A DNA stretch of 64,000 nt from the NCBI GenBank assembly GCA_964187785.1, contig OZ076409.1, positions 17,114,001-17,178,000 on the forward strand, read 5' to 3'. The position numbers and the translations under genes were made by a program. The DNA comes from Amphiscolops sp. MND2022 (taxonomy: Eukaryota). The notes beneath the pieces are model-generated. The model was not told where the DNA came from and did no database searches. It saw only the letters and a list, made by a program, of their open reading frames with translations. Positions 12,405 through 40,786 of the stretch are shown one piece after another; position 1 is the stretch's first letter, and every line of letters starts with the position of its first letter.

Positions 12405-12446
12405 GAAAATTGAAATTACCAAGAATATTTCAACAAAACAAAGAAA

Positions 12447-17642: not shown

Positions 17643-17655
17643 AGAAGGGAGGAAA
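17643..17655 (+). promoter_or_regulatory. Polypurine tract
   Basis: AGAAGGGAGGAAA directly before the 3' LTR TG. Confidence 0.9.
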
Positions 17656-17922
17656 TGTTATACGGTACACATACCGAACCGATCCTTTCGGTTGACACTG
17701 TCAATCACAAAACTTTAGATCATTCTCATCATAGACATTTATTTATACATATGCTTACATATTAGTAAACAACATATGTTACTTTGCCTTATATCGAAAT
17801 TGCATCAGTTAGATACTTTTCGTAGCTAGAGAATAGATCGTTTCACTGACAGTATTTATGTTCTGAAAAGATACTTTTAAATAAACTTATTTGTTTTCTT
17901 ATTCAACCAAGAATATAGAACA
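17656..17922 (+). repeat. 3' LTR (267 bp)
   Basis: Direct repeat of 12117-12393, followed by TSD TCAGG. Confidence 0.95.
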
Positions 17923-19644
17923 TCAGGATTGTCCTACTTTCTACATTAAGTTGATCAAATTTTACTTTGGACCCTGAAAATAGATCGAAAACTCAAACAA
18001 CTCAACTATCACATTAGTAGCGTTTTCAAGTTTTCAACCTGGAGATGCAATTGTGAACGAGGGCTCGGTGACGTTTGATTGGTGGTTGGTTTGAGTCAGT
18101 TCTGTGTCGGCGATCCATTCAGAATCAGTTTTGTTTTCCATTTTCATCAACACGTACCAGGAAAGAATCTCAGAAAGAAGACCATAAAGACAAAATACGC
18201 TTAGAATTTTTTCAGCTGTGAATGAATTGAACCAGTTTTACCTTACTCAAAATTCTATATCTTTGAAAGTTGTAAAATTACGGTTTTTAACCACATTTGA
18301 AACTTCCGTGATTTGGAACTTGGAGCTGACCAAATTAAAGAAGCTGGTGATTTATGTTTATATTTATCTAAGGGAAAACGAATTTAAGAGCCCCCATCGC
18401 ATGGAAAAGCAGTTGATTTACATTTATCAAAGATAAACAAAGAAACTTCTTTCTAAGAGCTTTCATTGGCTTTCATGAACAATTTTCGATTTTTATAAAC
18501 CAGGTTCATCAACAAAATGATGAATATTTATTTCTGAAAGAGTGAATGCCATGAAAAACTAATACAAAAATCATCAACTTCCTTCAGATCTGCAAGAATG
18601 ATCTCAACTAATATAAAGGTTTCGTGAGTAAAAATTTATTCAAATATTAAACTATCATTATGAATTAATAACCCCGATCAACCAACTTTTGAATAAATAA
18701 CTTAACCAAGTTGTCATAAAAAAGACACTAAAAACGGTCAACTTACTTTCATTCATAGTACCGACTTTTTCATATGGCTTAAAATTCAATTTAATAGGAA
18801 ATCATAATGGTTTTCAAAAGATTAACATTTAATTTCTCATGAATAATTGAATGTTTTTTTTGAAAATTGAAGTGACACTGTTGAAAAGAAGCATTATCAT
18901 TTCTAGTGCACTTTTTTCATCAGTGTCACTTCAATGTCTTGTGGAAATTGACTTTTCCTGTGGTACCAAAAACATCACCCGGATCCAACGCCACATGCGA
19001 TTTCCATGCAATTCCATGAATGGATCCATTTTTGTTCGCGGAAGGAATCATATGGTTCGAACCATATGATTCCTTCCGCGAACAAAAAGATATGGAAATA
19101 ATGGATGTCATGATTCCATGCATGGAATCGAATGGAAATGAGTTCATCATATGGTTCTATGCGACTGAGATTCTATGTGAATGGAATTGCATCGAAGCCT
19201 CATGGGTTCAGTTCTACGTGGTAACATGAACTTCAGTTCAAAAGTATATTATTCACAACTTATTATCCAGGAAAACAAAAATACAAGACCAAGATCATGA
19301 AAAAGTTCCCGGCATGACTAAAACATAAATCATGGATGAATCATGAATGGAGTTCCATGATTGACAAACACGAGCAGGGTGTGAAATATATATAGGTCTT
19401 GAAATTCTATGAGGATTCAAACTGTTCTCCAAGGTGCTATGCCAAGATGCTCTTGAAGTCATCGAACATTTGGGCCGAAATATCAACATCACTTAAGCAC
19501 ACAAAGTTGTACTATCTTCTTGGACGTGCTTCAAGTGTTAGAAGCATTCAAGAACGCTGCCTGATTTTTTTAAATGAAAAATTTAGGTTCTTCATGGACT
19601 TTTCTGACAGTTGCTCTGTCGTTTCGCTGCAGTTTTAAATACTC

Positions 19645-19751
19645 ACGGGGAGCATGGCGTAAACGGGGAGCATGGCGTAAACGGGGAGCATGGCGTAAAC
19701 GGGGAGCATGGCGTAAACGGGGAGCATGGCGTAAACGGGGAGCATGGCGTA
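19645..19751 (+). repeat. Six tandem copies of the 18-bp unit ACGGGGAGCATGGCGTAA
   Basis: Directly visible; the last copy runs into the SINE A-box. Confidence 0.95.
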
Positions 19752-19990
19752 GTGGTTGGAGCATTCGGCCTATACTGGGGCGGTATCAGGTTCGAATCTC
19801 TCTCAACTCACCATTGTTGGGCCTTGAGCAAGTCTTTCATCCCTAGCTTAGTGGTATGGTCAGTGACAAAAAATAACGCATTTGGCGGAGAAAAGCAAAA
19901 CAAAAAGAGCAACGGTGAGCAGTCAGACCTTTGTGACCTTGAGCAAGTCACTCTGAAACCACAGCTTCAAGTCCACCATTGCTTGACCAC
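19735..19990 (+). mobile_element. tRNA-derived SINE
   Basis: A-box TGGCGTAGTGG (19745-19755), B-box GGTTCGAATCT (19789-19799), then CCTTGAGCAAGTC twice (~19822, ~19937), a motif typical of SINE central domains. The 3' end is approximate. Confidence 0.7.
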
Positions 19991-20818
19991 TTGGCTGCAA
20001 ATATGGTACCATAGCTTGCTATGGGGTGATAGTATCCGAAAGGGCGCCGACTTAGAAAAGCAGAACTGCTTATCGGCGTCCACTCCGCGGAATTGGGGAA
20101 ATAAACTTTCTTCTTCTTCTCACTACAATCAATGCACTTTTAAGTGCGCGTTTCTGGGGCTCTGAGTGGGCAAAATACTTCCGAATTGATTCTCTGCTGA
20201 AGATCAACCACCAATACCTAAAAATGATCTCGAAAAGAAACCCAATGAACAGTGGTATTTTTTTGTGAATTTTTGAAGGATTTGAAAGAGAAGCTGAACA
20301 ATGTACTCCTTTGGATGCTTCTCTTTGTAGCAAGATCTCTAATTCAATTTTTCTTCAATTTTCAATTTATACAGCTAGAAAGAAAAGTTTAGTGAGCTCT
20401 AGAAATACGTTATAACACCTTCTTCAAGCCACACTTACTGAAATAATTATCAAAACATGACTTTCATTATTTTTCGCTCCCTTTTATTTTCCACAGAATA
20501 GAAATTCACCACATGATCTGCCTTTTAACCCTAATTTTGCAACGTTCCTATTTTATAATCAAACCAGGTTCTTACACACAGGTCAACTAAAAAATAGGAA
20601 AAATTGCAAATAAAATTTTATGTTTTCAATTTTCATGCAATTTGTGAATGTAGGTGTAGGGTTGAACATCCACATAGTTCACGACAGTCAGCCATATGGG
20701 AAACAAGACGGGAACGTCTAAAGTCTGCGCTATATCTAAGGCTCAAAAAGCTCAAAATACTTTTTTTGAAAAAATAACGTGAAATTTTTGAATTTTTTTC
20801 TTTCAGAAAATGTCGCAT

Positions 20819-22555
20819 TGTCGCAGGCTGCCGCTTGCGATGGGACACGTATCACAACGACTACTAACGAACAAGAAGCCGTACCAGGTACTCTACCCAC
20901 ATTTTAGGAGAATTATTCAAAACTTTTAGTAAAACTCACTGTTGTTGTATTATATTCATTATGTATTCGGATTGAATATTAGTCTGATTAATACTCGTGT
21001 TAGAATTCAAACGGTGATGATTATGTTTATATGATGAATTGTTTAGCAGTGACGTAATGCAATAAAGGCAAGTGTAAAGCTTAAAGGAAACGAGTTCAAG
21101 TGAACGAAACTCTAATTCCGGAGACGTCACTTGAGCTCATTTCATTAGCCAATCAGAACGCTCTATCCTGCTGTGCATTATACTGTCATATTTGTTTGGC
21201 CGTATACGGCCACTTGACGCTATACTTTATTTTGTAAGCGATCCAAAGGCAAATGGCCGGATTAGGCCATTCCAACTATTAGCTTGTGTAATTGTTTAAT
21301 TTGAGTATGCACGTTATTTAAAGTCATGTAAGATTATGTTCGTATTTAGAAGGCGCTAATGGGGCCATTTAAACCCAATTGATGCAGTTGTGACCACCAG
21401 TCATGAAACACTAAATACTAGTCCAGTGGACTAAACCGGTCACTTTAATTGGCTGGTATCTTTGTCAAATGGCCGAATTGGGCCATGTTCACCTTTTATT
21501 AGTGCATATAATTAGAGTTGCTATCTGATGAATTAGCTTGCGTGTGCAGGCACGTGCCTTAAATACCTCACATACCTGTTGACACAAATATTACTTTGAA
21601 GTGTCTGAACATGTATTTGCCTTGATGTTAATTGTTACAGGAATGCGGACTAAACCGTCCCCTGTACTTTGAAGCTATCATGAGTATGTAATTGAGTACA
21701 TTCCTCAGAAATTCTTCCGACCCTAAATTCCTGAATCACTTTGATGCAATAGCTATTTTTCAATCCTCGTAAAATCTCATGATCCTTTAAAATATGTAAA
21801 CATTTCAATAATATGTGGAAAATGTGAGTGTCATAACTCAGGAGGTGTATATATTCACCCCCCTCCTGAGGGGACACAATTTGCTTTCTTTCACAACGTT
21901 CAGTTCATTAATATTACCAGTTTTCCGAACTAATTCAATATTAACCTCGGACTTTCTTTCTAAATGCCTACTACTAGGAAACAGAAGAAAGCAAGGAAAT
22001 CTAGAGAAGCAGAAATGCTATCAGACATTGAGAATTTGGATATTATGCTCGGAGGAAATCACTTTGATAGAAATGAGAGAAGTGAAAGTGTGAATAGTAA
22101 TCAGGCCGGTAGGCCAGAAAGCTTATTTGGAGATGAATTTGGAGATGAGAATGAGAATGAGTTCCCAAACCCGGGAAATAATGGACCTAGCCCAAATACC
22201 GAATTAGGCCAAAATTCAATCAGAGAGAGTTCAAGTGTTGAGATCAATAGACTGTCGAGTGAGTTAAATTCCCGTATATCTCGAGAGATGGATGAAATGA
22301 TGAATAGCGTCAGTGTTCAGATTCAAAGGGCCATAAATGAGGCAATCAGTAGTCAAATTTTGCCTCAAATCCAAAATTCAGTTATGGCCGGGTCGGGACA
22401 GTTGACCAAAGAGAGATGGAACGTTCCGGCTGAGAGACCAGAAGGATATTCCGAAGTGCTGCAGAACTTAGAACCTAGGAACAATTCTAAGAGTAAGCAG
22501 GCCAATGACCGTCTCAAAGACGGATTCACAAGCACGAATTCTCGTGCTTACGACA
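20819..22555 (+). repeat. 5' LTR (1,737 bp)
   Basis: Direct repeat of 35279-37016; ends CGACA followed by TGG. Confidence 0.95.
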
Positions 22556-23685
22556 TGGTGACAGGAGAAAACGAATCTCCAATCGAAGTTCCTGAGTTTC
22601 TCACGGGACGAATGCCATCCACCAGTCATCTCAACAGATCAAACGATGACTTTCTCCTGCTCGACACGACGATCCCAGCGCAAAAACGACCCGCTCTGGC
22701 ACCAGAACAAGACCCGATCAACAAGCTAGCTGACGTCTTGACAAGTATGCAGAATCGCCCGACAGCCCAGCAACTCACAATCCGCCCAGTCAACTCAAAA
22801 ACTATGACGTTTGACGGCAAAAGTGAGAAGTTCGAGCTGTTTGAAGATTTATTCCTTACGATGATCAAGATGCAGCCTGACATGACGGAACAAATGAAAA
22901 TTAATCATTTTCATTCCTTGCTGAGAAAGAATGCACTCCAAACATTCAGAAACATCAGCACTGCAAATAGACAAACTCTTGAGGACGTACTCGTCATTTT
23001 CAGACGAAAATACGTCAAGCCTGAATCACAGGCAACTGCCAAACATAAATGGCACCGCCTGGTCTTCGATCCTAACACGACCAAATTGCCAGATTTTCTT
23101 GAGGAGCTCAATCAAGGAGCAGAAAAGGCCTTTGGAGACAATGCTCAGAAAATGATTGACAGTCTCCTATATGCCAAACTGCCACCAAAGCTCAAAAGAT
23201 CAGTAAACATGGCTAGACTTGAGAATGGCTCGTACGATGAAATTGCCGCTCATCTAGAAAGAGAACTAGAATTGAATGCACTTGAAGAATCAGAAGACCT
23301 ACCCATGGCGTCAATGACATCATCGGTCACGAAACCAAAAACTGTTCCTTCTAATACACAAATAAGTGATATTACGTGCAATTATTGTAAGGAAAAGGGC
23401 CACATGGTCAAAGATTGTGAAAAATTAAAAAAGAAAAAGGAAAAAGATGCCCAACAAGGCAAAACGACTCAGAAGAAGACCTATCCTAAATGTGGTACTT
23501 GTGGCAAGACGAACCATCCGGAGGAGAGATGTTGGCAAGGGGCAGGTGCGCACCTTAAACCTAAACGCACCAGACCAGAAGACTCGTCGGACAATGACCC
23601 TGACTCCAAAACATTAAAATCGAACTACAGACCAGCATCTTCCAACAGCCAATCCTCATCAAGTAAAGATGAGTCAAAAAACTAG
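21964..23685 (+). CDS. Gag (573 aa), initiating inside the 5' LTR
   Basis: Capsid-like FDGKSEKFELFEDLF region; two Zn knuckles, CNYCKEKGHMVKDC and CGTCGKTNHPEERC; the first ~197 codons lie within the LTR. Confidence 0.92.
   Translation: MPTTRKQKKARKSREAEMLSDIENLDIMLGGNHFDRNERSESVNSNQAGRPESLFGDEFGDENENEFPNPGNNGPSPNTELGQNSIRESSSVEINRLSSELNSRISREMDEMMNSVSVQIQRAINEAISSQILPQIQNSVMAGSGQLTKERWNVPAERPEGYSEVLQNLEPRNNSKSKQANDRLKDGFTSTNSRAYDMVTGENESPIEVPEFLTGRMPSTSHLNRSNDDFLLLDTTIPAQKRPALAPEQDPINKLADVLTSMQNRPTAQQLTIRPVNSKTMTFDGKSEKFELFEDLFLTMIKMQPDMTEQMKINHFHSLLRKNALQTFRNISTANRQTLEDVLVIFRRKYVKPESQATAKHKWHRLVFDPNTTKLPDFLEELNQGAEKAFGDNAQKMIDSLLYAKLPPKLKRSVNMARLENGSYDEIAAHLERELELNALEESEDLPMASMTSSVTKPKTVPSNTQISDITCNYCKEKGHMVKDCEKLKKKKEKDAQQGKTTQKKTYPKCGTCGKTNHPEERCWQGAGAHLKPKRTRPEDSSDNDPDSKTLKSNYRPASSNSQSSSSKDESKN
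23676..23682 (+). promoter_or_regulatory. -1 ribosomal frameshift slippery site A AAA AAC (gag to pol)
   Basis: X XXY YYZ heptamer directly before the gag TAG; the -1 frame is open and in frame with the pol ORF at 23784. Confidence 0.8.
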
Positions 23686-26600
23686 CTTCGCCACGACTCC
23701 ACTATGACCAACTAGTCTCTGTCCGACAATACATCAAATCGGACCCTCCAACTAAAAACTTTCATAACTATCAGCAACAATTAATGGGCTATCCTTCTGT
23801 TGTCTGGCAGCAGCAGATGGAAAAAGCTACCATTATTACTTACAATAATACCCATTTGTTCCAGAAACCAATTCCTGTATGGGATCCTGATTACACATCT
23901 GCTTTCAATAGCCGATTCAGGCCCATTCCCTTGGTAGACGATTACAACCCTACCTACATAGACCCCGATTATGGACGAGATCCCTATTGGGACACGGAAC
24001 TCTACAACCAAGATCTGCTACAATTCCAATACGTCATTGATGATATCGAACTCTACAATAAATCAGCCCATGAAAATCCTCCAATCACACACAACAAGAA
24101 AACTAGAGCATTGATTGAAACCTGGCAAATGAATGATGGCACAAGCCATCCGGTGTTCCCAAATCCCCTGGGGACCGAGACTACCGAAAACATGGAAGAA
24201 ACAGTCCCACAGTCGCTATTAGAAGAAAGTCAGTTCCAAAACGTTCTTATTACCAGAGATGGTGAACCGGACTGCATACCCCTGCCCACCAACATAAATC
24301 TGAAATGCAAGAAACGCATGCTATATTTCCCCATGGATTTTGGGGAATTGACCATAGACGGACTTACCGACACTGGTGCATTATCCAGTGCAATCCCAGA
24401 GATGGACCTCCGGAAAATCAGACTCTTATCGCCACAATCAGTAATCCGGGAAGGTCCGCCTCCAAACTTCCAGATAATGGTCGCAAATGGGCAACTAGAG
24501 ACTCCCAAGAGTACAATAGAGCTCAAATTCGAAGTTGGTGACATAGAGTTCCATGAAATTTTTATAGTAATGGAACACTTAACAGGACCGATTATAGGAC
24601 TGATGTTTCTACAGAGAAATCATACAGTACTGGACATGAGACAAGGAATACTGAACTTTCCGTTCTTTTCAATGCAGCTCAAAACAGCTGATCATAAATA
24701 CTCGAACGTGCTAGAGCCAATTCTAAACCCTACTGAAATAACCATTCCGCCAAACGACAGAGTCCTGATTAGGACCAATTCCTTATTATACCCTGAAAAC
24801 ACGGTCACAGGAATTTTGCAACCGAGCGACCTTCTCCATGAAGAAGGCGACATCACATTCTGTCCAGCCTTGGTCACCTTGAATGACGGCAATATATTGA
24901 TACCAGTGAATAACTTCACAGACCACCCTTACAAGCTCAAAAAGGGACTCCATATTGCTAGTTTTTCAGTCATGACGCCAGAACAAATGAAATATGTCAA
25001 ACCGGTAGACCCGGCATCAACCTGGCATTTGTTGCAAAACGACCAAGAGCAAGCAGCCCATTACGTCAGTAGCCTGATCAAGATGAACAAAAATTCACAA
25101 AACTCCGAAAACTACTGGTTCCCAACTCCGGAAAATCCAGGGAATCCAGAAGAACACACTCCAATCCAGAAAAGAATCCTCCGCGAACTACAAGCCCTAC
25201 AGGACCTAGAATCCCTTGATCCCACGAAAGACGAGGAATCTAGGGAAAAATTCTTGGGAAATTTTGATTGGAAAGACTCCACCCTAACCCTGGAAGAGAA
25301 AGCCAAAATTGAAGAATTGCTAGTGGAATTTCACGACATTTTTGCGAGACACAGATTTGATATAGGCATGAATGAGGAATTCAAGGTGAAATTGACGCCT
25401 AAGGACAATTCCCCAGCCTATAGCCAAAGCCTCCCTGCGCCAATAAACTTGAAAGGGGACATATTAGTCGAATTAGCCATGCTCCATAAATATGGCATAA
25501 TAACTACTTTACCGTTCTCGAAATACGCCAGCCCAATATTCGCGCAAAAGAAACCAAACGGGAAACTGAGACTTCTGGTTGACTTGAGAAAAATCAACAA
25601 CCTAATCTCTGATGATTATATAAACAATAACCACCCAGTCAGTACCTTAGTTGATGCCGCTCAACACTTAGCGGGGAAAAAACTGTTCTGTAAATTAGAC
25701 TGTTCACAGGCATACCACTGCCTGCCGATGGCTGACCAGCGATCAATTGAAATGTTGGCCTTCAATTTCGCCAGCCGCACATTTGCCTACAGACGATTGG
25801 CACAAGGCCTTAGTAGGGCGCTGTCCGCATTCTCCAGTTTCATGAGGGAATACCTCGACAAAGTCATAAAAGCGGATCAGTGTGCCCAGTACGTGGACGA
25901 TATCGGCATCGCAGCCAACGACGCCGACCATCTCATTGCTAACCTAAGAGCAACTTTCAAATGCATTCAGGAAGCAGGCCTTAAATTGACGATGCACAAG
26001 TGTCATTTTGGTGCCACAGAAATTGATTTCCTCGGACGAACGATTACTCCACAAGGCGTCAAACCCCAACGGCAGAACTTTCAGAATTTTCTAGAAAAAA
26101 CCAAATTTCCAAAGTCGAAAAAGGCTCTGCAAAGATATTTGGGTTTCCTGAAATACTACCGAAACTACGTCCCAAGACTGTCCGAACGCCTTGCTCCATT
26201 CTACAAGATGCTGAAAAATGACGAAAAAGTCCTAGTATCAAGAGAATTGGTACAGCAATTTGAGTAAATCAACCGAGCTCTGGACAAATGTTGCGACTTA
26301 GCCTTACAACAACCCATTCCTAACAAGCAGATTGCACTCATGACAGATGCAAGTTTCGGAGCTGCAGGATACGCAGTACTCTTTGAAGATGATCCGAGTC
26401 AGAAATTCACGTCAATCCGCAAATCATATGCCCCGGTCGCTTATGGTTCAAAAACCTTCACCCCAGCCCAGATAAAGATGTCAATTTATGCAAAAGAATT
26501 TCTTGCGATTTATTTCGCATTCAAAGAATTTGGGCATATTTTTTGGGGAGCGCCGAAACCGGTCATAATCCTAACCGACAACAAAGCCGTAACAAGATTC

Positions 26601-28894
26601 TTTCAGACGAAAATCGTACCCCCAGCCCTGTGGAATGCGTGCGACTATGTAATTCAGTTCAATTTTGTCATTGCGCACATCCCAGGAGCACAGAATACGG
26701 CAGCGGATTACTTGTCCCGATTGGAAGCAGACCCAAAGGACAAATTAGTAATGAAAATCCGAGAAGATGTACAAACGTTGCCAATAGAAATAAACGTCCA
26801 ATCAGCAGGAGTCTCACAGGAAGAGCAAATCTTCTACACCAACGACGACGATGAGACTGAAGAACAATATTGGGCGAGGAAAGAAGCAATCAGGAAAAAT
26901 CCTGTAATCGAAGACCCTACAGTTACAATACAAACTCTTTCCACTAACCTAGCCAAACAACAACCTTAAATACAAATCCGATTGAGGAAAACAAACCAGA
27001 TAATTATTGAGCAATCCAAGGATGCAGTATTACAACAATTGAAGGCGAAACTCCTTCATGAAGATTACTCAGAAAACATACTGCAACAGGACGCTCGGTA
27101 CAGGCATTATGCTAACAATCTGGAACGAATTGTCATCAAAGAAGACATCCTCACAAGGCAATATTTTGATGAAACAGGGAATGTAAAGTACCACCAAATC
27201 CTTCTCCCGCAACATTTGCTGCAGGAATTACTCCAGTCCTTACACGGGACAGCTCACAAGCATCCGGGTATTTCAAAAATGCTGCAGGAGATCAGACAGA
27301 GGTATTACTACCCTAACATGGCGAAATATGTTAAAAAGTGGGTAGAAGGGTGCGAACAATGCGCAAAGGACAAACGAGTCCCAAATGCAACAATCACGCC
27401 CGAGCTACTTAACTTGCCGGAATGGGACCTTGGACCCGAAGACGCAATGCAAATTGACTTATTGCCGAACCTTCCCCCAAGTGGAGGATATGAAAATGTA
27501 TTAACCGCGATTGATGTCTTTTCTCGATATTTGTTTGCATATCCGCTCACAGATGCATCAGCGATCAATGTAGCCAAAGCACTCATTGATATTATGACCA
27601 AACATTCCTACTTACCGACGACGCTCATTACGGACAAAGGAACTGCCTTCACTTCCACGATTATTGCAGAAATTACCCAAATTTTAGGAATTACCCTAAA
27701 ATGTGCAACAACAAAGCACCCGCAAACTATCGGGAAATTGGAGCGCACACATGCCTCATTGAAAACAAACTTGAAAATGGCATGTGGGGAATATCGCCGA
27801 CAATGGCACAAATACTTGCCATTAGCAGTTCTGAATCACAATACTAGCTATCATGCCAGTATAGGATGTGAACCGACAAGAGTATTCCATGGAAGAATCC
27901 CATACAACATCTTGGATCACAAGCTTGGAACAAATCCAAACGAGCAAATCCATCCGACTACTGAGTTCGCAGAAGAAATCCAAAATCGGACAAAGCTCCT
28001 TATCGACAAGACGAAGCAAAACATCATGCAGTCATATATCAAATATAAGGAGTATTACGATCGAAAAGCCAAAGCCGCCCCACTCAAGGAGGGCGATTAC
28101 TGTTTTGTATTACAGCCAAAAGCGGACCACCAAGGATCCAAAATTCCCTTCAGAGATTATCGATGGGTTGGACCATTCATAGTCCAGAAAGCTTTACCTA
28201 ATGAGAACTACATCGTCCGCAGACTTAATACGAATAAAACGCAGATCTTGCATCGAATTCGTCTCAAAAAGTTCGTTCCTAATCAGCCGCTCGAGGACAA
28301 TTATCGAGAAGAGAGATTGCAGCTGGACGAAGGCATAATCATTCCACAGGACGACTTATACGTAATAACGTGGGACACAAATTTTGGCGAACAGCTAGCC
28401 ACAGGAGGCAGCGAGCCGATTCCGGCTAGCTTGACGAATGGCGAACAGCCGAACACGGCACAAGCGAATACAAGTGATGCAAGCGAGAATGGAAGTGATT
28501 ACATAATCACGACTGAGTGTCCGAATGACGTCAACGACGCACCACGCAGTAGAAATGAAGAAATGGAAAATGACGTCAGCAATGCTAATGAAGCTAATGA
28601 AGCCAATGAAAATGAAAACCCTGATTGGCCAAATCCGGCCGTTCCCCCAAAGAATCAAGAAAAATCTCTGCCGAATACGGCTGAAGGATTGAAAAATGAC
28701 TTTCCAGAAACTTTCCAGAAAGAAATCCGATCAATGAAAACGATGCACAAAAGTCTCCAAAAAGGGGGGACGATATTATCGTGCCCGAAATATCAAAAAA
28801 TGATGCTAGAAATGAAAGTCTGAGTCCTAGAGGAGGGAAATATAATCTCAGGCCTAATCCTAATCCAAACTATTCAGAAGACTTCAGATACTAA
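23682..28894 (+). pseudogene. Pol (protease, dUTPase-like segment, RT, RNase H, integrase), disrupted
   Basis: LTDTGA, QYVDDI, TDAS, H..HKHPG...CEQC, QID/TDKG/LER. In-frame TAA at 26265-26267 and 26967-26969. An 11-bp tandem duplication (28699-28720) shifts the C-terminus, which otherwise ends GKYNLRPNPNPNYSEDFRY* at 28894. Confidence 0.93.
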
Positions 28895-29121
28895 GAATTG
28901 AATTTTCCCGGAAATGGGAATTCTTTTCTTTTAGCTTTGTTTTTCCAAGCCCCTCTGAGAACTTCTTTTGAATAAATACTGGGGCATTCCAAAGGATCCC
29001 TAATAAAGAATAAATATGGGATCAAATCATCAAGAAAACAAAGTAGAGATATAAATACGGCAATAAAACAGAAGAAATTAACAAGTTTACAACACGGAAG
29101 TACATAAATACATATGTACAT

Positions 29122-32100
29122 TTACTCATTAGAACTTGATTGGGGTCGTCTACCCGCTGTTGGAGAACTGGAAAATCCAACAAGGCTGCTGCTCTGACGT
29201 TTCCTTTTCGTCTTACTGGGGACCTTCAGGGCGGAACCATCAACAACTGATGAGGCATCGTCAGGGGACATCCGGACCGTGCCTGTCTTCGGACCAGAGA
29301 TGACAGACTTATAAGTGTTCAGCAGAGACTTGAAAATAATTGAACGACCAAAAGAATCTACGTAGGCCCAAGGGTCATACTCTGGACTGAACGCAGACCT
29401 ATCGTAGTCACTTGAAAGCAGAGAGAACTTACTCAAACATTGATCGCTGACACAATGTGAAATTGACCCAGGAACATTAACAAGATAACTCTGCCCAGGG
29501 AGAATAACATCGGTAGACCGACCTTGATGATCGTTGGTATCAATACTACCAATCGTAACGACAGGAAGCTGAGAACTGGGGCTAGTGATACACAAACAGC
29601 ATAACTTGAAGAGGTAGAGTAAATGAGTCCGCTTCTGTAGGAATTCAAGCCCCATGAGGAAATCAATCAAATCCTGAGACTCACTGAGGAGGGTGAAGTC
29701 GGCAGAATGGGATACGCGCAAATGATCTATGAGCCCTAAATACTCATCTCGATAAATGAACTCAGCATCACCGGTTACCCAAGAACGAAGTTGGAATGTA
29801 TTGTAGAGCAACTCGAAGTGACGTAAAGCAGAAGCAGGTGGTTGTTTGAATAACACAACAGGATCGAAAGCAGCAAGTCCTTTGATGATGTGGGTGTTGA
29901 GCCCAGCTTGCTTGTGTAATCCATCCAAAAGGTGGCCTATATACTTGAGTCCGTCTGTGATGAACTCCTCCTGAAGTTCTTTGGCAGTCTTTTGAATAGC
30001 AGCCGCTTCGCTCTTCTTGCCCGAATGCAACCCCTCTGCCCTCTGTTTGCAAGCGTGAGGAACTTTACTGGACAATCTGAGCCTGGTAAGGAAGTCGTCT
30101 CCGTCCATAAGGGTCCCGTCTGCTGATTTGAAAGAGAGCAAATCGAACCAGGAATCTTCGGAAGGGATTGTGTCCGCAGTGAATGCTCGAGAACAAATCC
30201 GATGTATGAAGCGGCTTGTCTCTCCACATACATAGAATGAGGCATCGCGGCGTTGGGCAAAGTTGACAGAGAAACTGGATACGTCTACAAATACAAAACC
30301 ATGCCTAAAATGGGATACTACCTCAACTTCTATACCTAACAATAGGTATACTAACAATCGTTGACCAGCTTGGAGAAGAAATCCAACTTGATGGTGAAAA
30401 ACTCATCACAAATGAGTGACCACTCGAAACTTTGCACCTGCAACAAAGAAATCAACTCAATGGGCATTTGGTTGTCAGACCAAAGATGATCCACTACGGG
30501 GATTTAGGGATACTGTACATAGTGGTGCTACATGACAATTAAAGGGACGCAATTACTTACTCTACCCCTCACGCCTTGTCCTTGTTGTCGAGGTGCATGT
30601 ATTGTCAAAAACCTCTGTACAGCCTTCCATTCACGAATGAGTTCCAGACAGAGGACTGGCAAAGTCAATAGGTTCAACTTGCAGGTTCGTATACCCTAAA
30701 CAAGACCTATGGTGTACTTACTGTATCAATATCACTGATCCATAGCCCTCCACAACCTGAACCCGATCAATACCCTACAGAAACCCGGATCATGCCTGTT
30801 CAGAGAAGAAAGAAATCACTTACGTTGGATAATTCGGGACTCCGCATCGCCCATTCCTCCCTGAGAGAGCCTCCTAGAGAGATGACAAGCCCCCTTAACA
30901 CTGAAAAGAAATCAATGTGTCCGAAGATAGAGCGACTGGACTTATGCATCAGAGTCTCTAAGGAAAATTGGCTGAATCGGAAACAGGACTGGACTCCCTT
31001 TGAGAAGTAATCCGATTGATCAACCACACGGATAAAATCGGCGGGACACCCAGAACTGGCGACTATGTCAACTTTAGGCGAAATTGAGGACAACAACCGA
31101 GCAAGGGATCCCAATTCCCCGTTTAGATTTGGAGAAGGTAGCCCACTCCGACAGATGAAGACCCTGCATAGGGTGTTTTCCTTCCAAAACCGGACTGACA
31201 TGAAGCGATAACTGCCCACGTCCTCGAACTCGAGCCCAAGGCATTGCTCCTTTGTGGTGTGATTGGCTATGTCATCCAGAGCACAATTGAAGAAGTGTTG
31301 GAAAATGACCTGAAAAGGACATAAGGGAAATCAACTCCTGGGTGTGACATAACCGCCTAAAACGGCAGCTTAACGATATGATACTTACAGAGAATCGCTC
31401 TGCACTCCAGTCAAAGTCACATAGTGCAGCCTGAAAGTCCGTGTATGAACTGACTCTCGTCCATAGATTCCGGAGAAGATGTAAATCACCGTGACTTTGG
31501 AGGAAATCAGCCGTAACACACAATTGGGTCCGTGCTCGCGAATCAGGCGTGACCAAGGGATCAGTTCTGCCTTTGATGAAGTCGTCATAAAAGGGGAATC
31601 GCTCCCCTATGTCAACTAATTCAGCATGTATGAAGCGAGGCATTTCTTTGGCCAACTCGAGCCTGTTCAGGATTCGACCGTCTCGCCCTCTGACCCTATG
31701 TTGAACTTTCCCTGTGACTGGGTCTACGCTTTTCAAGTATTCATAGCGCCAGCGCTGGTCCTTGCGCAGATGTTTCTCAGTTCGGTGGTGACGAAGAATT
31801 TCCTCCGGGCCTTTGGAACGTATGGAGAAATTCTTTTTACTAATATGGCACCATACCATATGTGAATTGTGTAGAGGGTCTGCAGGTCATGAGATAAAAG
31901 ACCGGGTCCACCCAATTTTTGAGAAAAACTCTTCTCTCATTGGCACTCCTCGTCTCTTCACCCTTTTCTTCTTCTGAGGTTGTTTCTTCTTAGAGCCTGT
32001 ATGGGTCTTTTCAGCAATGGCGTGATCCCTTACTTGCGACAAAGTTTCATCGAGACAATTGGCATCACTGGTATCAGGATTTTCCAGAGATCGACTAGAA

Positions 32101-33563
32101 GGCCCCGGTACTTCACTCGGATCCTTAGGCATGGAAGTTCCTGCTCTGGCAAAGTTTTGCTCAATTAAAGCTAACTCCCCTGCACTGTCCGATTCCTCAT
32201 GAAAGGACGTGTCACCTGATTCAGTTCCTCCACTCATTTCTGCGTCAGCCTGAGAATCATAGCGGACTGGGGTAGTGCACCCTTCGGAGCCACTATCTCC
32301 ACTGCTTGAAGGATAAGGCGTATGTGCGCGTCTGAAAGTTTTGAATTGATCAGTCCGTGACTTGGACGTCGCTGGGGCTCCTTTCACTGCCGATACAACC
32401 ATATGCTCCATCGTGTTATAAGACAAACTCACAGTCTCATTGGTGAGCACCCTAAGGAGGTGGTACAACTTCGGTTCAGTAAGTGTTATTACGGGGTGGC
32501 CCTGCGGCAAAGTAATGGGCTTGGCTTCTCCAAAATACTGTTTCAAAGTGGCTCTACTCCTTCCAGACAGGTTATGTAACTTGGGACCAGTGACCCCAAG
32601 CTGGGAGGAGGAAGTCCCAGGGACCTGTGGGTCCTGGATGCCAAAATCGGATTCCTGCGTCTCTTCTGCAACTGAGTCCATGCTTCTCAATGTGTCCCGG
32701 TAACCATACAAATCTATCTGTTGATCACTACTCTCGTTCAACTGGTCCAACTCACCATAGTCAGAGACGTATGTCGTCGCTGTGACTGTTCCAGGCAACG
32801 GGGGGGCATCGTGGACAGAGGAACTGTTGTCTTCGTCTTGCTGGAGGAATGACACCTTACTTGTCTCATTGGGGACTCCTTCAACAGGCAGCAATTCCGG
32901 CAAGGTTGCATCAGGAGGCCCAGCAATCTCAAGCCCTGATTCCAATTGAGACAAACTAACTGTGGGGACTGCGCAACTGGCGTGGGGTATTGGAGTGCTA
33001 GACCGAGTGATTGGCATGTCTGCAGACAACTCAGTGCCGTGGGAGGCCTTCATTGCGCCCTCTCGCCTAACTTCTACTATTTCTTCCACTATCTCGTTAG
33101 ACAACTGCGTTTTCTGCATATGTTCGACCATCTCGTCTGCATACGCCGTAACGTCAATGTTACTGTCTACGCTATGTGGGGAGATGACCTCAGCAACTTG
33201 ATCCTGGCCCGAACGTTCAGATGATTGGGAATTGGAATTGAGTCCTTGAGACCCAACTGATGGACCTACTAGTGGGGGTAGGATCCTGGTAATCTGGGAA
33301 GAAGAAACCAATGGGAGAAATGGAGGGGGAGAAGGAACCAAGTTTCGAGTTGTACCCGGAACGGGAACGGAATTCATGGATGAAATAACTTCGATGGGAT
33401 TGGCGGAAGCAGGGTTGGTTGGTGTATGAGAATCATCTAAATTCTGGCGATCTAAACAGAAAGAGATGAAATTTGGCGGTATGCTTCCTCGATAGAAATC
33501 CATTTGCCGCGTCAGAAGACTTCCGGAAGCAGTCTTGAAAATTTGAATGAAACGTGCTATCAC
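29122..33563 (-). CDS. Antisense spliced accessory gene (~1,350 codons): disordered N-terminus, basic NLS-like patch, Zn finger, hAT-transposase-like body; one nonsense codon in this copy
   Basis: Exons 33563-31389, 31309-30824, 30695-30561, 30437-30356 and 30284-29122, joined by GT-AG introns of 79, 128, 123 and 71 bp, give one frame. Internal TGA at 31889-31887. The true start and the exon 3 acceptor are uncertain. Confidence 0.75.
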
Positions 33564-34575
33564 GTGTTCTCTGATGGAAACAGGAAGCGCTTAATGAACG
33601 AAATTTAGCCCTGATCAAGCCAAGTTAGTTCAAAATAAAAATCCAGACCAACCTGTATTCGAAGACATCCTGCTGAGATAATTGAATCCACTGAGGATCT
33701 GCCCAAATTCGGATGAGAAAATTGGGGATGATGGCCGGACTCGGACAACAGATGGGGAGGGGGCTCGGATGGCTACGGAGAATGAAGGAGAAGTCCACAA
33801 CTGTTATGGAGCCCCAGGTAGATAAAAGGACTAGCAAATGGTATAAGAATCGAGTATAAAGGAATTCGAATGGTAATGGTAGTACAAATGAAATAAATAA
33901 ACAATGGAAGAAATGAAAGTTGGAGATCGTGGCTGAAGGTTCACCAGACTAATATTATTTGATTATCTACATATTTAAATCTGTACACGGAGTCTGCCAG
34001 CGAAATGTGCAGGGCGTATCTCGCTATTTACAACCTTGTTACAATTAATGGCCGATTATGGCCGTTAACCCCAACTTATGTTGCCGTTTTGTTCAGTTTT
34101 CCTAGTTACCTTAGTTAGATTTTCGCCACTTCAGTTATTCAAAATTATTATTTTCCGTCATCTTCATTATTCATTTTTTCAAATTTATCGAAGCTCAAAT
34201 TTGATTGGCTGAAGCCATTTCAGTGAGTTTCATCCGACAAGTGCCGTTAATTGCTATCAAGCTTGATGTTGATTACCCACTTGAAGTGGAATTATTTGTT
34301 GTTGTCAACTTAACACCTCTTCGCATACTCACTTGAGAGAGTGAGAAATGGGGGTTCCATTCCGAATTTCAAAGGATAAATAAGCCGCTGAGAAATTCCA
34401 TTTTAGAAAGTTTACGACGGATCAGGGCGATTGACCATGGTCTCTCCCGCCGAAATGGAACTCCGGGAAAATAGCCTGAATTGGCCTGAAGAAAAATTTG
34501 ACAAATTCATTCAACTTTGAATCCTGCAAGCAACAAGTCGCTCTGCGAATCAACAAAATTGCAAAAAAGATAATA

Positions 34576-35367
34576 ATGGCTAAATTTAACTTAGCAAGAA
34601 AGCTTTTCGGCTTAGAAGAATCGGACTCAGAAGCCTCGGTAAATTCAGTCATCTACCTATCGAGTGACGAGGAGGAAGACACCTCATCTACCTCATGGGA
34701 TTCCGACTGGTCCACGGACACCGAGGCTATCATAGAGAGAATCGAGAGGGAAGTTAAGTCAAGCCCAATTTTGATCGCAGGTCGCAAGATGACTGTGGAG
34801 GGGCAGGCTACAGAATCAGCAGCTGGACCAAGTAATCTTCAAATGCGGCCGTCTTTGACTCCGAAATTGGGATTCAAACACTTTGACGAGAAACTCGTGT
34901 ATGCGCCGATGAGGAAGGCAGAAAGAACCCGGATAGAACTTTGCAACACAGTTCTACCAGTGTTGGAATCGCCGTTGTCTCCGCCCGAGCATGAGAGAGG
35001 GCCGTCCCAAGACGTGCTCATGGAACAGCCAGTTAGCACCAGCTTCCACGCATCTTACCACATCCAACAAGTACAGCCGTATTCGGATCTTAGTAAACAG
35101 TTGGGCCGTGGATGTATGGTCTGTGGAAGGTCAGTGGACGAAATTAAACAAGAGAAGGTGAATTGCTACGTGAGTAGATCAACACCGCGCAATGAACCGG
35201 CATACATAACGGACTTGAGGAGAGAAGCCTACGAAAATGGTCTAAATGCCGGGAGTCTTCTTTTCTTAGCACCCGCAGTGTCGCAGGCTGCCGCTTGCGA
35301 TGGGACACGTATCACAACGACTACTAACGAACAAGAAGCCGTACCAGGTACTCTACCCACATTTTAG
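34576..35367 (+). CDS. Accessory ORF of unknown function (263 aa from the first ATG), ending inside the 3' LTR
   Basis: Open frame with an acidic Ser-rich N-terminus (VIYLSSDEEED) and CMVCGRS; its stop lies 89 bp into the LTR; AATAAA at 35521. Confidence 0.65.
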   Translation: MAKFNLARKLFGLEESDSEASVNSVIYLSSDEEEDTSSTSWDSDWSTDTEAIIERIEREVKSSPILIAGRKMTVEGQATESAAGPSNLQMRPSLTPKLGFKHFDEKLVYAPMRKAERTRIELCNTVLPVLESPLSPPEHERGPSQDVLMEQPVSTSFHASYHIQQVQPYSDLSKQLGRGCMVCGRSVDEIKQEKVNCYVSRSTPRNEPAYITDLRREAYENGLNAGSLLFLAPAVSQAAACDGTRITTTTNEQEAVPGTLPTF

Positions 35368-37016
35368 GAGAATTATTCAAAACTTTTAGTAAAACTCACT
35401 GTTGTTTTATTATATTCATTATGTATTCGGATTGAATATTAGTCTGATTAATACTCGTGTTAGAATTCAAACGGTGATGATTATGTTTATATGATGAATT
35501 GTTTAGCAGTGACGTAATGCAATAAAGGCAAGTGTAAAGCTTAAAGGAAACGAGTTCAAGTGAACGAAACTCTAATTCCGGAGACGTCACTTGAGCTCAT
35601 TTCATTAGCCAATCAGAACGCTCTATCCTGCTGTGCATTATACTGTCATATTTGTTTGGCCGTATACGGCCACTTGACGCTATACTTTATTTTGTAAGCG
35701 ATCCAAAGGCAAATGGCCGGATTAGGCCATTCCAACTATTAGCTTGTGTAATTGTTTAATTTGAGTATGCACGTTATTTAAAGTCATGTAAGATTATGTT
35801 CGTATTTAGAAGGCGCTAATGGGGCCATTTAAACCCAATTGATGCAGTTGTGACCACCAGTCATGAAACACTAAATACTAGTCCAGTGGACTAAACCGGT
35901 CACTTTAATTGGCTGGTATCTTTGTCAAATGGCCGAATTGGGCCATGTTCACCTTTTATTAGTGCATATAATTAGAGTTGCTATCTGATGAATTAGCTTG
36001 CGTGTGCAGGCACGTGCCTTAAATACCTCACATACCTGTTGACACAAATATTATTTTGAAGTGTCTGAACATGTATTTGCCTTGATGTTAATTGTTACAG
36101 GAATGCGGACTAAACCGTCCCCTGTACTTTGAAGCTATCATGAGTATGTAATTGAGTACATTCCTCAGGAATTCTTCCGACCCTAAATTCCTGAATCACT
36201 TTGATGCAATAGCTATTTTTCAATCCTCGTAAAATCTCATGATCCTCTAAAATATGTAAACATTTCAATAATATGTGGAAAATGTGAGTGTCATGCCTCA
36301 GGAGGTATATATATACACCCCCCCTCCTGAGGGGACACAATTTGCTTTCTTTCACAACGTTCAGTTCATTAATATTACCAGTTTTCCGAACTAATTCAAT
36401 ATTAACCTCGGACTTTCTTTCTAAATGCCTACTACTAGGAAACAGAAGAAAGCAAGGAAATCTAGAGAAGCAGAAATGCTATCAGACATTGAGAATTTGG
36501 ATATTATGCTCGGAGGAAATCACTTTGATAGAAATGAGAGAAGTGAAAGTGTGAATAGTAATCAGGCCGGTAGGCCAGAAAGCTTATTTGGAGATGAATT
36601 TGGAGATGAGAATGAGAATGAGTTCCCAAACCCGGGAAATAATGGACCTAGCCCAAATACCGAATTAGGCCAAAATTCAATCAGAGAGAGTTCAAGTGTT
36701 GAGATCAATAGACTGTCGAGTGAGTTAAATTCCCGTATATCTCGAGAGATGGATGAAATGATGAATAGCGTCAGTGTTCAGATTCAAAGGGCCATAAATG
36801 AGGCAATCAGTAGTCAAATTTTGCCTCAAATCCAAAATGCAGTTATGGCCGGGTCGGGACAGTTGACCAAAGAGAGATGGAACGTTCCGGCTGAGAGACC
36901 AGAAGGATATTCCGAAGTGCTGCAGAACTTAGAACCTAGGAACAATTCTAAGAGTAAGCAGGCCAATGACCGTCTCAAAGACGGATTCACAAGCACGAAT
37001 TCTCGTGCTTACGACA
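35279..37016 (+). repeat. 3' LTR (1,738 bp), including a duplicate of the gag N-terminus (36425-37016)
   Basis: Direct repeat of 20819-22555, followed by TSD CGCAT. Confidence 0.95.
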
Positions 37017-37858
37017 CGCATAGTGCCGAAAAAATTGAAAGGGGAGACCCTTTGGGCTTTTCGAAACTTCAGTTTGCTGTAAAATATCAAAAAATTTGAA
37101 TGGGGACTCTTTTGAGACATTAAAAATTTTTTCGAAAAAGTCGCACAATGCCGAAAAAAAAATCGAAAGGGGGGACCCTTTAGTATCGTCTGGTTTTGTA
37201 AGTTACGTTAAAAAAGTAAAAATGAAAGGGGGGACCCTTTTGCAGTCATTTCCGCTGACCGGACTTGGCCTCATGGTTGTAGTTTTAGTAGTTTCGATTG
37301 CAAGAAAAGTGGACCAATCAGAGTGAGATTGTAGTCTGACGGAAAAAAAGAAAAAAACTAGCCACTGTAATAGTCGGGTTCTTTTCACTAGGAAAGCGCC
37401 GACTAAAAAATACTAACTGAGCCGCGTTTTCGTTTTTTTTCTCCACAGTTTACCATGTTCCAGTGTCATACCTAAATTCAATGGGTTCCTCCATAGCCCC
37501 TTGACTAATTCAACTGACATCTACTTGTTTCGTGCCATTTTCTGAAACTTTTTTAGGTTGTTACCAAAATGATCAAAATGACACCAAGATAGTTTGGAAA
37601 ATTAAAAAAAAGATCTGTAACGTTTCACTGCACTTTCTGTTGTTTTCAAATCTTTGTGTACATTAGAATATTCAAAGACTTCCAAGACAACAGAAGAAAG
37701 TTTCTCCAATGATATCAAAATTAGAAAAAAAACAATTTACCAAATTTTATACTATTTCTTCAACTTGTGTACAGTTATCGAATACTTTCGAGAGATAGGT
37801 AATCCGAAATGGTTCGAGCCGAGGAAACCACCGAGGAAAAATTCGAAACGTGTTTCGA

Positions 37859-39880: not shown

Positions 39881-40786
39881 AACGTATCCAGTGAATTAGC
39901 GTATCCAGTGAATTCAGCGGAGAACAAAACTACAACTCAGTACATTTTGAAGGAAAAAACGTGAAGCCTAAAAAACATTCCCCCAAATATCAACGGTTTT
40001 TACTCTTGACATCATTAGCAAATATTTGTACATGTTAAATAATATTTTGTGGGTATAGATAATCACAGCGTTCGAAGAGACAATAGTTGATTTCCAGCAT
40101 TCTCTCAAAGCCTAACAGTTGACGCTCAATTTTAACTTACACAAAAAATCTAGTCAAGAACCAAAAACTAAGTTTTTTTCTAACGTTTCATGCTTTCTGG
40201 AATATCTTCGCATGCTTTTGTAAGTGTGAAAATCCATGGAGCTCAAGTACAAAACGTTTGGCAACTTAACCTACTTCGTTTGGAGAAACAATACCAAAGC
40301 AAGGCGTGATATGAATTGAAGATTTCAAGCACGAGTCAAATGTCGGGGCTAAAAAAGTCGGGCGCAGAAAATGTTCAACTGCTCAGCTTGTTTATAGAAA
40401 AATGTGCAGTATTTTCGTGACCCAAAACAGCAAAAAGCAAAAAATAGAGAAAACCCTTAAAATACCGTGCAATTTTTGTAAAGTTCTGAAATGTTTTTGT
40501 TCGTATGAGTGTCCACGCACAGAGTTCAACAACAAAAATTGGGTAATCAATAAATTCTTCGTTTGTAAAAAATCATCTAACGCTTTTAAATGCTTAAATT
40601 GAACCATAATGTTTCAAGTTTTTAGTTTTTTGAGCGTTTTCAAATTTTTCAGCAATGGACTTTCTCAAAAATAGTTGGTTTTTCACTAAAAGTGAATCAG
40701 TTGGGTGGAATCGTTTCATAAGTTTGGAAATACAGTAAACTCAGGGAAATTAGTATCCGGATATTCCAGTTCTTCGTTTAATTCGC

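Follow-up and report, generated by a model that had tools for sequence, protein, structure and literature searches.

An antisense, predicted multi-exon accessory gene of possible transposase origin in an animal Ty3/gypsy retrotransposon

The origin and the job of the antisense accessory genes of LTR retrotransposons constitute a standing question. In plants, elements of the Retand/Tat type conserve antisense ORFs within a long region between pol and the 3' LTR, and the reports concerned describe these ORFs as thought to be nuclear and regulatory and as having an internal promoter of their own (PMC11963269, PMC7264820). A nested transposable element (TE) insertion is named as a possible origin in two plant papers, one of them PMC7264820, and is rejected there for lack of similarity. 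Among fungal gypsy elements, Boty/BcGypsy1 has an antisense accessory gene (brtn) that lies downstream of pol and ahead of the 3' LTR, according to PMC7264820 and PMC8365987; hence a first-pass annotation of the DNA studied here, which had located antisense extra ORFs mainly in plant Tat/Retand elements, was right about plants and too narrow in leaving out the fungal Boty (PMC7264820). The same annotation held that the extra ORF of an animal gypsy element is normally a sense env; this is too restrictive, given that family-specific non-env accessory proteins are described in several animal LTR elements, namely Cer1 of C. elegans (CERV), bdelloid Vesta and Juno (their ORF3s) and planarian Burro.

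Here a 64,000-nucleotide stretch of DNA (the window) is analysed, positions 20819-37016 of which constitute a single Ty3/gypsy insertion of about 16 kb, bounded by LTRs and a TSD:

20814..20818 (no strand): left TSD, CGCAT, matching the right copy
20819..22555 (+): 5' LTR by LTR comparison, 1,737 nt, TGTCG...CGACA, its final 592 nt being gag coding sequence
22556..22567 (+): primer-binding-site (PBS) position, beginning TGG, directly after the 5' LTR and within the gag frame
35249..35278 (+): site at which a polypurine tract would be expected; the sequence is pyrimidine-rich, with 6 purines in its last 15 nt
35279..37016 (+): 3' LTR by LTR comparison, 1,738 nt, in which ORF4 ends and gag codons 1-197 recur
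37017..37021 (no strand): right TSD, CGCAT, matching the left copy

The near-identical LTRs and perfect TSD of the first-pass annotation are confirmed: the LTR pair is 99.4% identical, differing by nine substitutions and one 1-nt indel (a tenth mismatch in the comparison lies outside the LTR), and CGCAT stands on both sides. The LTRs have the TG...CA ends, and the TSD the length (4-6 bp), of Ty3/gypsy elements. The proposed gene order was likewise reproduced--that is, gag (+), pol (+), an antisense gene (33503-29122, -) and ORF4 (+)--with the splicing of the antisense gene into five exons resting on a gene model. The window copy is defective, in that pol contains two in-frame stops and a frame change and exon 1 of the antisense gene contains one in-frame stop; intact relatives exist. 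The element is a recently inserted but broken Ty3/gypsy copy. A search of the window for tRNA genes found none. A purine tract abutting the 3' LTR (a typical cis element rather than a taxonomic criterion) is absent, which raises the question of how second-strand synthesis is primed.

Elsewhere in the window, an ordinary purine tract is present in a second, neighbouring gypsy element (12.1-17.9 kb), and a DEG/ENaC channel exon and an ASXH gene point to an animal. Relatives were not found in metagenome, viral or prokaryote-genome contigs, the viral contigs also yielding no RT relatives. A sigma-70 promoter scan of the window gave hits at chance level; its model is bacterial and irrelevant to a eukaryote.

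The sense-strand part of the element that precedes the accessory genes is organized as follows:

21964..23685 (+): gag, 573 aa, with a CCHC knuckle, reading through the LTR end and the PBS (ORF, Pfam)
23676..23682 (+): slippery heptamer A AAA AAC, just upstream of the gag stop, pol lying in the -1 frame
23673..28894 (+): pol, PR-RT-RH-IN, interrupted by two in-frame stops (ends at 26267 and 26969) and, near 28.7 kb, by a frame change (ORFs, Pfam)
28971..29067 (+): four AATAAA closely following the pol stop, which may serve a short gag-pol mRNA as poly(A) signals

The start of gag thus places 592 nt (197 codons) of coding sequence inside the LTR, a point absent from the earlier annotation, so that a gag fragment of 197 aa could be expressed from any solo LTR. 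Gag fragments carried by LTRs make up a cluster of 84 members and, among the matches listed, the match to gag ends at codon 197-198 in 11 of the 14 others. The zf-CCHC match of gag (E 0.003) is below the Pfam cut-off, and only a weak hairpin (-8.3 kcal/mol over 70 nt) lies downstream of the heptamer. The PR-RT-RH-IN order, which is that of Ty3/gypsy pol, recurs in an intact relative (Pfam). Uninterrupted relatives of 1,690-1,701 aa occur within a 1,547-member pol cluster (a count that includes fragments), and the best solved-structure match of one intact relative is Ty3 Gag-Pol (E 1e-48). At least four AATAAA occurred in 6 of 2,000 dinucleotide shuffles of the 228-nt region, which was picked after the signals had been seen.

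The antisense gene is modelled as five exons and four GT-AG introns that would together encode 1,326 aa:

31389..33503 (-): exon 1, aa 1-705, with an S/P/T/E-rich N-terminus, a basic NLS-like stretch at aa 505 and a zinc finger at about aa 551-578 (splice model)
30824..31309 (-): exon 2, aa 706-867, predicted RNase H-like alpha/beta core (splice model, fold prediction)
30561..30695 (-): exon 3, aa 868-912 (splice model; homologs that read through intron 2)
30356..30437 (-): exon 4, aa 913-939 (splice model; homologs that span the junction)
29122..30284 (-): exon 5, aa 940-1326, helical, with a basic tail and features like those of a hAT C-terminus (splice model, homolog clusters)

Homologs match the exons and not the introns, a pattern that suggests coding constraint on the gene, and the presence of introns varies between homologs. 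Thus P0356, P0399, P0406 and P0444 read through intron 2 and match again from 30695; P0014, P0090 and P0189 span the exon 3-4 junction without an insert; and the exon 4-5 junction is spanned by P0168, P0213 and P0276 without an insert and by P0179 and P0310 with a 24-aa insert. Being antisense to the genomic RNA, the introns would presumably escape removal during retrotransposition. The in-frame stop of exon 1 is at codon 539; among the matches listed from the 45-member exon 1 cluster, that position is read through in 9 of 14 others, and the full CxxC-H-H finger is kept in 9 of 14 homologs. Exon 2 has 153 homolog clusters and exon 5 has 122 (441 representatives at 50% clustering), of which the 120 listed total 1,475 sequences, mostly about 50% identical, with at least 10 members in each of 32 clusters. 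The pol cluster is of similar size (1,547, fragments included). Longer fused forms of exon 5 numbered 0 among 5,123 candidates, a count that constitutes weak evidence. Introns, if the model is right, are also what one would expect of a captured host gene carried as neutral cargo; however, the best 120 matches to exon 5 and the best 120 to exon 2 include no named or Pfam-annotated homolog, and open frames and motifs are kept across families that are just 30-55% identical, so that such a capture is highly improbable.

Instead, the antisense gene probably originated from a now dead hAT-type transposase. Its predicted layout consists of a zinc finger, which we take to resemble hAT fingers, then about 150 aa, and then an RNase H-like core (beta-beta-beta-alpha-beta-alpha) whose model has a pLDDT of 60 and a pTM of 0.53. 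For the finger, Pfam gives weak zinc-ribbon/C2H2 matches only. A Foldseek search with the exon 2 model ranked the hAT transposase Hermes first (E 0.022). In structural comparison, model residues 21-108 align with 175-265 of Hermes (Z 5.8, rmsd 2.6, 81 aligned); every Z there is below 8, and retroviral integrases (Z 7.1-7.2) outrank Hermes. For exon 5, 23 of 30 Atlas matches are to Dimer_Tnp_hAT and FAM200/GTF2IRD2 clusters (0.93-0.94), with shared-feature counts (143-166) below the Atlas guide of 170. Homology to hAT is, however, not statistically established. Pfam returned no hAT match (PF05699 included) in 100 exon-5 members or 17 further proteins, the PF05699 region giving weak in-register HMM matches (3-8 bits). 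Against home-built hAT profiles, hhalign scores (17.9-21.6) fell within those of reversed and shuffled controls, and forward versus reversed hAT segments gave p 0.06-0.35. A motif scan supplied the 120 metagenome loci behind these references, which comprise 7 long segments, 49 C-terminal segments and a 125-row set; they represent mainly one hAT subgroup, and no set gave a match better than its controls. No hAT emerged from two motif scans of viral sequences, profile searches of PDB sequences yielded nothing useful, and the poor exon-5 structure model (pLDDT 56) gave no meaningful fold match.

The expected catalytic positions, which we take from the usual hAT spacing, suggest that the protein is catalytically dead. 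Column counts at these positions (set by structure ranges together with that spacing) show the DDE triad and the CxxH motif to be absent across the family: the first-strand site has Glu732 and Glu734, conserved in 96% and 100% of 95 family members, with Glu732 near the first catalytic Asp of Hermes if the alignment is ungapped; the second has Ser-Gly (97% and 90% of 120 members); the third lacks a conserved acid; and C-F-R-F replaces the expected CxxH. The two conserved glutamates, along with conserved acids at 770, 796 and 838, could alternatively mark an active nuclease--an ExE form of a DEDD-like site--that counters small-RNA defence or trims cDNA ends and whose likeness to hAT is convergent. 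Glu in place of Asp is unusual at DEDD-like sites. Fold searches place integrases, Argonaute, Prp8, actin-like folds and Hermes at the top; DEDD exonucleases, absent among the matches listed, may still be related, and the C-terminal features point to hAT clusters. An active nuclease is very unlikely, although bdelloid LTR elements do have DEDDy exonucleases as ORF3, according to PMC5408684, and fast divergence relative to pol would fit an arms race.

Beyond the antisense gene, the element contains a second accessory gene, an intervening region and a set of LTR palindromes:

33504..34575 (no strand): non-coding stretch between the divergent accessory genes, putative bidirectional promoter (from the layout)
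34576..35367 (+): ORF4, 263 aa, acidic and Ser-rich, with one CxxC, its last 89 nt inside the 3' LTR (ORF)
21197..21485 (no strand): three palindromic TGGCC-N6-GGCCA sites, at 21197, 21254 and 21470, upstream of gag in U3 (sequence scan)

ORF4 is longer than expected by chance: 1,000 shuffles of its region produced no ATG-started ORF of at least 264 aa, the longest being 177 aa. It belongs to a 97-member cluster; among the matches listed, 10 of the 14 others are likewise 263 aa long. Its fusion to the LTR, noted at first pass, is shared, 13 of the 14 other copies listed having an LTR-encoded C-terminus. Neither Pfam nor Atlas gave a usable match to a known domain. The earlier statement that neither accessory protein has a TM helix also holds (best 19-residue hydropathy 1.46 for the antisense protein and 1.31 for ORF4); an env-type sense ORF3 with a transmembrane anchor, as in errantiviruses, was not found, neither accessory gene being env-like. 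The antisense protein, with its NLS-like stretches, is predicted to be nuclear rather than membrane-bound.

The TGGCC-N6-GGCCA palindromes are candidates for recognition by a dimeric protein: in 500 shuffles of that part of the LTR, no 5-mer dyad (spacer 0-15) reached three copies. A further TGGCC-N6-GGCC site lies at 34049, within the divergent region. In the scheme proposed here, a hAT-type transposon would once have nested in the element in reverse orientation and later lost its ends. The stretch at 33.5-34.6 kb between the divergent genes would drive both of them, and the antisense protein, no longer catalytic, would work in the nucleus on the element's own promoters, with the palindromes as candidate targets. 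Transposases and their dead derivatives activate cognate copies in plants, as 10.64898/2026.08.24.746577 describes. That the antisense gene is a domesticated dead hAT-type transposase serving as a nuclear, DNA-binding activator or anti-silencing factor for its own promoters is a tentative reading, a little short of an even chance; a transcriptional or anti-silencing role as such is held with somewhat less confidence still. The palindromes offer a direct binding test.

The same transposase-derived, integral gene might instead act post-transcriptionally, by exporting or chaperoning genomic RNA (like CERV of Cer1, or Rev), by promoting poly(A) read-through after pol or by tethering the integration complex to chromatin. 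Downstream of pol, the genomic RNA has to get past four AATAAA; RNA could be a ligand of the zinc finger; RNase H-like scaffolds can presumably pair with integrase-type folds; and CERV, an animal gypsy accessory protein, exports genomic RNA (PMC10309623). The palindromes in U3 and in the putative divergent promoter nevertheless fit a dimeric DNA binder, and dead transposases usually keep DNA binding (10.64898/2026.08.24.746577); a post-transcriptional role is unlikely.

The accessory genes themselves are very probably integral to the element lineage. As claimed at first pass, no TIR or TSD was found around the 6.4-kb accessory block: an inverted-repeat scan, 8-bp TSDs of hAT type included, yielded at best an inverted match of 12 nt with one mismatch, and the eight 8-mers shared between its flanks are each followed by at most 1 nt of inverted sequence. 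The claim that the block is integral is likewise supported: it sits inside the LTR-bounded insertion, and both accessory genes are multi-copy families. In other copies, modules were paired by equal contig size, not adjacency. So paired, this subfamily's exon 1 (45 members) and exon 5 (42 members) share four same-sized contigs, 4.4 being expected if they belong to the same elements, and 8 of the 14 listed RNase H-cluster members lie on a contig of the same size as that of an antisense homolog. Seven of these pairs come from other subfamilies; their pol shares 91-93% identity with that of the window (one shows 100%, over 47 aa only), against 48-66% for the antisense gene. Sequence change in the antisense gene seems to be several times as fast as in pol, a difference that suggests conflict with the host.

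It might be argued that the block is a separate transposon-like family nested here, most of whose 1,475 homologs are free or ride in some copies only, inasmuch as the subfamily's antisense clusters (42-45 members) are half as large as those of ORF4 (97) and LTR-gag (84), and no contig size is common to the listed members of the latter two and the subfamily's antisense carriers: none of the 14 listed ORF4 copies lies on a contig of the same size as any of the 24 known carriers of the subfamily's antisense allele (3.5 expected if nested, P 0.013), and none of the 14 listed LTR-gag fragments does (4.0 expected). This is quite unlikely, however, because the block lacks a TIR or TSD, because the RNase H-cluster members pair as described, because the homolog total is close to that of pol, and because a family without any catalytic triad could not move itself. 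For an integral gene, the missing pairing, together with two ORF4 copies that lie on contigs same-sized as those of 55% and 62% antisense alleles, suggests instead that alleles are swapped under a shared LTR, which argues against tight co-evolution of protein and site; the antisense allele may thus have been exchanged between subfamilies. The phrase 'moved as one unit' of the first-pass annotation is therefore apt for the window insertion; elsewhere there may be exchange of modules, or copies without the gene. The term 'cargo-bearing' undersells a gene that dozens of subfamilies have conserved and whose origin is probably a transposase.

The suggestion that this layout is undescribed in animals stands so far as the literature searched is concerned (supplements, subscription papers and Repbase Reports lay outside it), antisense accessory genes being otherwise reported, in the texts available, from plants and fungi, with different, smaller genes. 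The region between pol and the 3' LTR is similarly long in Retand/Tat (Grande gene23, RIRE2 and Retand), namely 2.9-6.6 kb there versus 6.4 kb here. Unlike this element, however, Retand/Tat is restricted to flowering plants and has LTRs of 315-1,194 bp rather than 1.74 kb, and its domain TRP28 (PF04195) had no Pfam match in the window element or the family proteins searched; moreover, its ORFs are said to resemble no known TE, their origin being left open, whereas here there are 1,326 aa, four predicted introns and a transposase-like layout. Boty/BcGypsy1 differs in its fungal host, and the available descriptions report no second sense ORF fused to the LTR. Cer1, Vesta/Juno and Burro encode their accessory products as ORF3s, as polyprotein domains or through splicing of the element's own RNA, and in the accounts consulted none is described as antisense and multi-intron or as transposase-derived. 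Coding sequence also overlaps the LTR in Ty1, where gag starts in the LTR and the overlap is a few dozen bases, and in retroviruses, where nef and sag run into U3; here the overlap is 592 nt (197 codons), duplicated in every LTR.

It is doubtful, though conceivable, that all of these features combine into a single picture: a very large animal LTR lineage, of about 1,500 copies in dozens of subfamilies, that tamed a class II hAT transposase as a spliced, antisense, fast-evolving regulator binding LTR palindromes, and that replicates with 197 gag codons in its LTR and without a normal polypurine tract. Were this so, a retrotransposon would have domesticated a DNA transposon, and antisense accessory genes would gain a traceable origin; the lineage may allow a nested-TE origin to be traced in an animal. 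The zinc finger, the predicted RNase H-like core and the hAT-like C-terminus would be shared with hAT transposases such as Hermes, and catalytic-residue loss is the usual route to a regulator, as for Spm TnpA, FAR1 and MUG (VANC being a functional analogue). Those transposases and the regulators derived from them, however, are encoded by DNA transposons or host genes, whereas here the carrier is a retrotransposon.

The element (a Ty3/gypsy insertion in the order gag, pol, antisense gene and a sense ORF, ORF4) is bounded by LTRs of 1,737 and 1,738 nt that start with TGTCG, end with CGACA and differ by nine substitutions and one indel, and CGCAT occurs on either side as the target-site duplication. 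The near-identical LTRs and perfect duplication of the first-pass annotation are thus confirmed, and together indicate that the entire interior came in by one recent integration. Its annotated features are as follows:

20819-37016, 16,198 nt: LTR-bounded insertion
21964-23685, plus strand: gag, ending directly after an A AAA AAC heptamer
33503-31389, minus strand: antisense exon 1, five-exon model
31309-30824, minus strand: antisense exon 2, five-exon model
30695-30561, minus strand: antisense exon 3, five-exon model
30437-30356, minus strand: antisense exon 4, five-exon model
30284-29122, minus strand: antisense exon 5, five-exon model

Of the nine LTR substitutions, four are crowded together with the indel into ~23 nt (21835-21857 versus 36295-36318) surrounding a TATA-like box ~115 nt upstream of the gag ATG, and an 18-nt unit forms a short array (19627-19769) ~1 kb left of the element. 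Elsewhere in the window are minus-strand host genes encoding DEG/ENaC channel exons (6398-11365; PF00858, E 1e-19) and an ASXH-domain, Asx-like protein (54475-57297; E 1.5e-14), and a decayed non-LTR element (40754-44367; an ORF1-like frame with endonuclease-like and RT pieces) between two diverged 2-kb repeat copies (37.9-39.9 and 45.6-47.6 kb). The two host genes indicate that the DNA is from an animal.

Evidence on other copies of the element comes from protein clusters. The pol frame, -1 relative to gag, has the domain order PR-RT-RH-IN; in this copy it is disrupted, with two in-frame stops and a shift of frame near 28.7 kb. Uninterrupted relatives of 1,690-1,701 aa exist, one 98.5% identical, within a cluster of 1,547 members (fragments counted in), and the best solved-structure match of one such relative is Ty3 Gag-Pol (E 1e-48). 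Inside the LTR lie 592 nt of gag, whose frame continues across the LTR end and PBS. This LTR-borne fragment belongs to an 84-member cluster, where the match stops at codon 197-198 and differing tails follow in 11 of the 14 other members listed; judging from these proteins, a gag start within the LTR is a family-wide trait. No purine tract precedes the 3' LTR (6 of 15 nt are purines at the expected position), unlike in the neighboring gypsy element (12117-17923), which has an ordinary one, along with ~270-nt LTRs, a 1,574-aa gag-pol frame, a WLDD RT motif and a late frame change. A splice-acceptor-like pyrimidine run ending in CAG (35255-35278) occurs just before the 3' LTR, at its edge. Four AATAAA motifs after the pol stop (as many in 6 of 2,000 shuffles) may terminate a gag-pol mRNA ahead of the antisense-gene overlap, or may just reflect a U-rich 3' UTR on the antisense side.

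The antisense gene is modeled with four GT-AG introns (79, 128, 123 and 71 nt) and 1,326 codons, with each junction backed by homologs in which the intron is either absent, or read through before the match picks up again at the next exon. Its one in-frame stop, at codon 539, is read through in 9 of 14 other exon-1 proteins listed and, by that comparison, is peculiar to this copy. Both the gene and its introns run antisense to the genomic RNA, so that splicing would leave the introns in place during retrotransposition, which would allow an LTR element to retain a multi-intron gene. Introns 3 and 4 appear to be missing in some subfamilies (homologs P0014, P0090, P0189, P0168, P0213, P0276), implying intron gain or loss within a retrotransposon-borne gene.

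The encoded protein has ~500 disordered-looking residues, then an NLS-like stretch and a CxxC-H-H zinc finger. For exon 2 the predicted fold is that of an RNase H-like core (pLDDT 60); Foldseek places Hermes transposase first (E 0.022). In VIA-align, Z is 7.1-7.2 for integrases and 5.8 for Hermes (rmsd 2.6, 81 residues), each Z lying below 8, the tool's guide value for confidence. In the language model, the final exon neighbors hAT C-terminal and FAM200/GTF2IRD2 clusters (0.93-0.94). Three separate parts thus suggest a layout of hAT type in the correct order, but direct profile tests against hAT were not above controls. Across the family, Glu stands on the first strand; Asp is missing after the fourth strand, as are CxxH and any conserved acid where the third site would be expected. 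The protein is somewhat more plausibly derived from a dead hAT-type transposase than not. Membership in hAT proper was rejected, there being no triad, TIRs or target-site duplication; the absence of TIRs and duplication around the accessory block had been noted at first pass and was borne out.

Exon-5 homologs form 122 clusters (441 representatives at 50% clustering) and exon-2 homologs 153, none of those listed bearing a name or Pfam domain. The best 120 of the 122 total 1,475 sequences, 32 have at least 10 members, and most of those listed share ~50-55% identity. Co-occurrence was assessed using contig size as a fingerprint, same-size pairs being putative neighbors: 8 of 14 RNase H-cluster members listed, and 1 of 14 from the large pol cluster, are sized like one of 269 antisense-bearing contigs. 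Seven same-size pairs come from other subfamilies; in them, identity to the window is 91-93% for pol (100% over 47 aa in one pair) and 48-66% for the antisense gene. If these are true neighbors, the antisense gene would evolve much faster than pol.

By the same measure, the ORF4 cluster (97 members) and LTR-gag fragment co-occur twice (2.0 expected), and antisense exons 1 and 5 four times (4.4 expected). On the 24 contig sizes known for this subfamily's antisense allele, ORF4 falls 0/14 times (3.5 expected, P 0.013) and LTR-gag 0/14 (4.0 expected, P 0.006), assuming random listing of cluster members. Solo LTRs can account for the LTR-gag shortfall, not for that of ORF4, and two ORF4 copies match contig sizes of more distant antisense alleles. 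The simplest reading is that the antisense allele was swapped between subfamilies, or lost in some copies; a rival is that the block is a separate family hitch-hiking in the element. The proposal that the genes moved as one unit stands for this insertion, on its LTRs and CGCAT; the co-occurrence counts speak against a fixed unit elsewhere.

ORF4 (263 aa, acidic, one CxxC) is far longer than chance expectation; of the 14 other copies listed, 10 are full length, and no known relatives were found; it is guessed to be a nuclear or regulatory cofactor. Retroviral nef ends in U3, as ORF4 likewise does. The LTR's sole plus-strand AATAAA (21061 and 35521) lies ~150 nt past the ORF4 stop, and would suit ORF4 as a poly(A) signal, though it is possibly a premature one for genomic RNA.

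Each LTR holds three occurrences of TGGCC-N6-GGCCA ahead of gag, and near-copies lie in late pol (28626) and in the non-coding divergent region between the antisense gene and ORF4 (34049); as a control for choosing the motif by eye, 0 of 500 shuffles of that LTR part contained any 5-mer dyad three times. A host factor could equally be what binds it. In the likeliest mechanism, an ancient DNA transposon would have inserted in reverse orientation and then lost its ends and catalysis, its remnant protein being kept to bind DNA in the nucleus and to activate or de-silence the element, as one study reports for transposases and their dead derivatives in plants (10.64898/2026.08.24.746577). This scheme as a whole is tentative. 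One rival is a role in RNA export, for which CERV is a precedent (PMC10309623), or in integration tethering; others are an active nuclease, the hitch-hiking separate family and neutral cargo.

Animal gypsy elements with non-env extra genes are known (PMC5408684 and PMC6431247), and 'antisense' and 'accessory' are absent from the main text of a 2026 survey of env-bearing metazoan gypsy elements (PMC13524379). No animal element with this layout was found in the literature searched. A gene in antisense orientation in this position, after pol and before the 3' LTR, is a hallmark of plant Retand elements (PMC11963269; PMC7264820) and occurs in fungal Boty (PMC7264820; PMC8365987). The layout of the element is real, and antisense genes of this placement are already known from plants and fungi.
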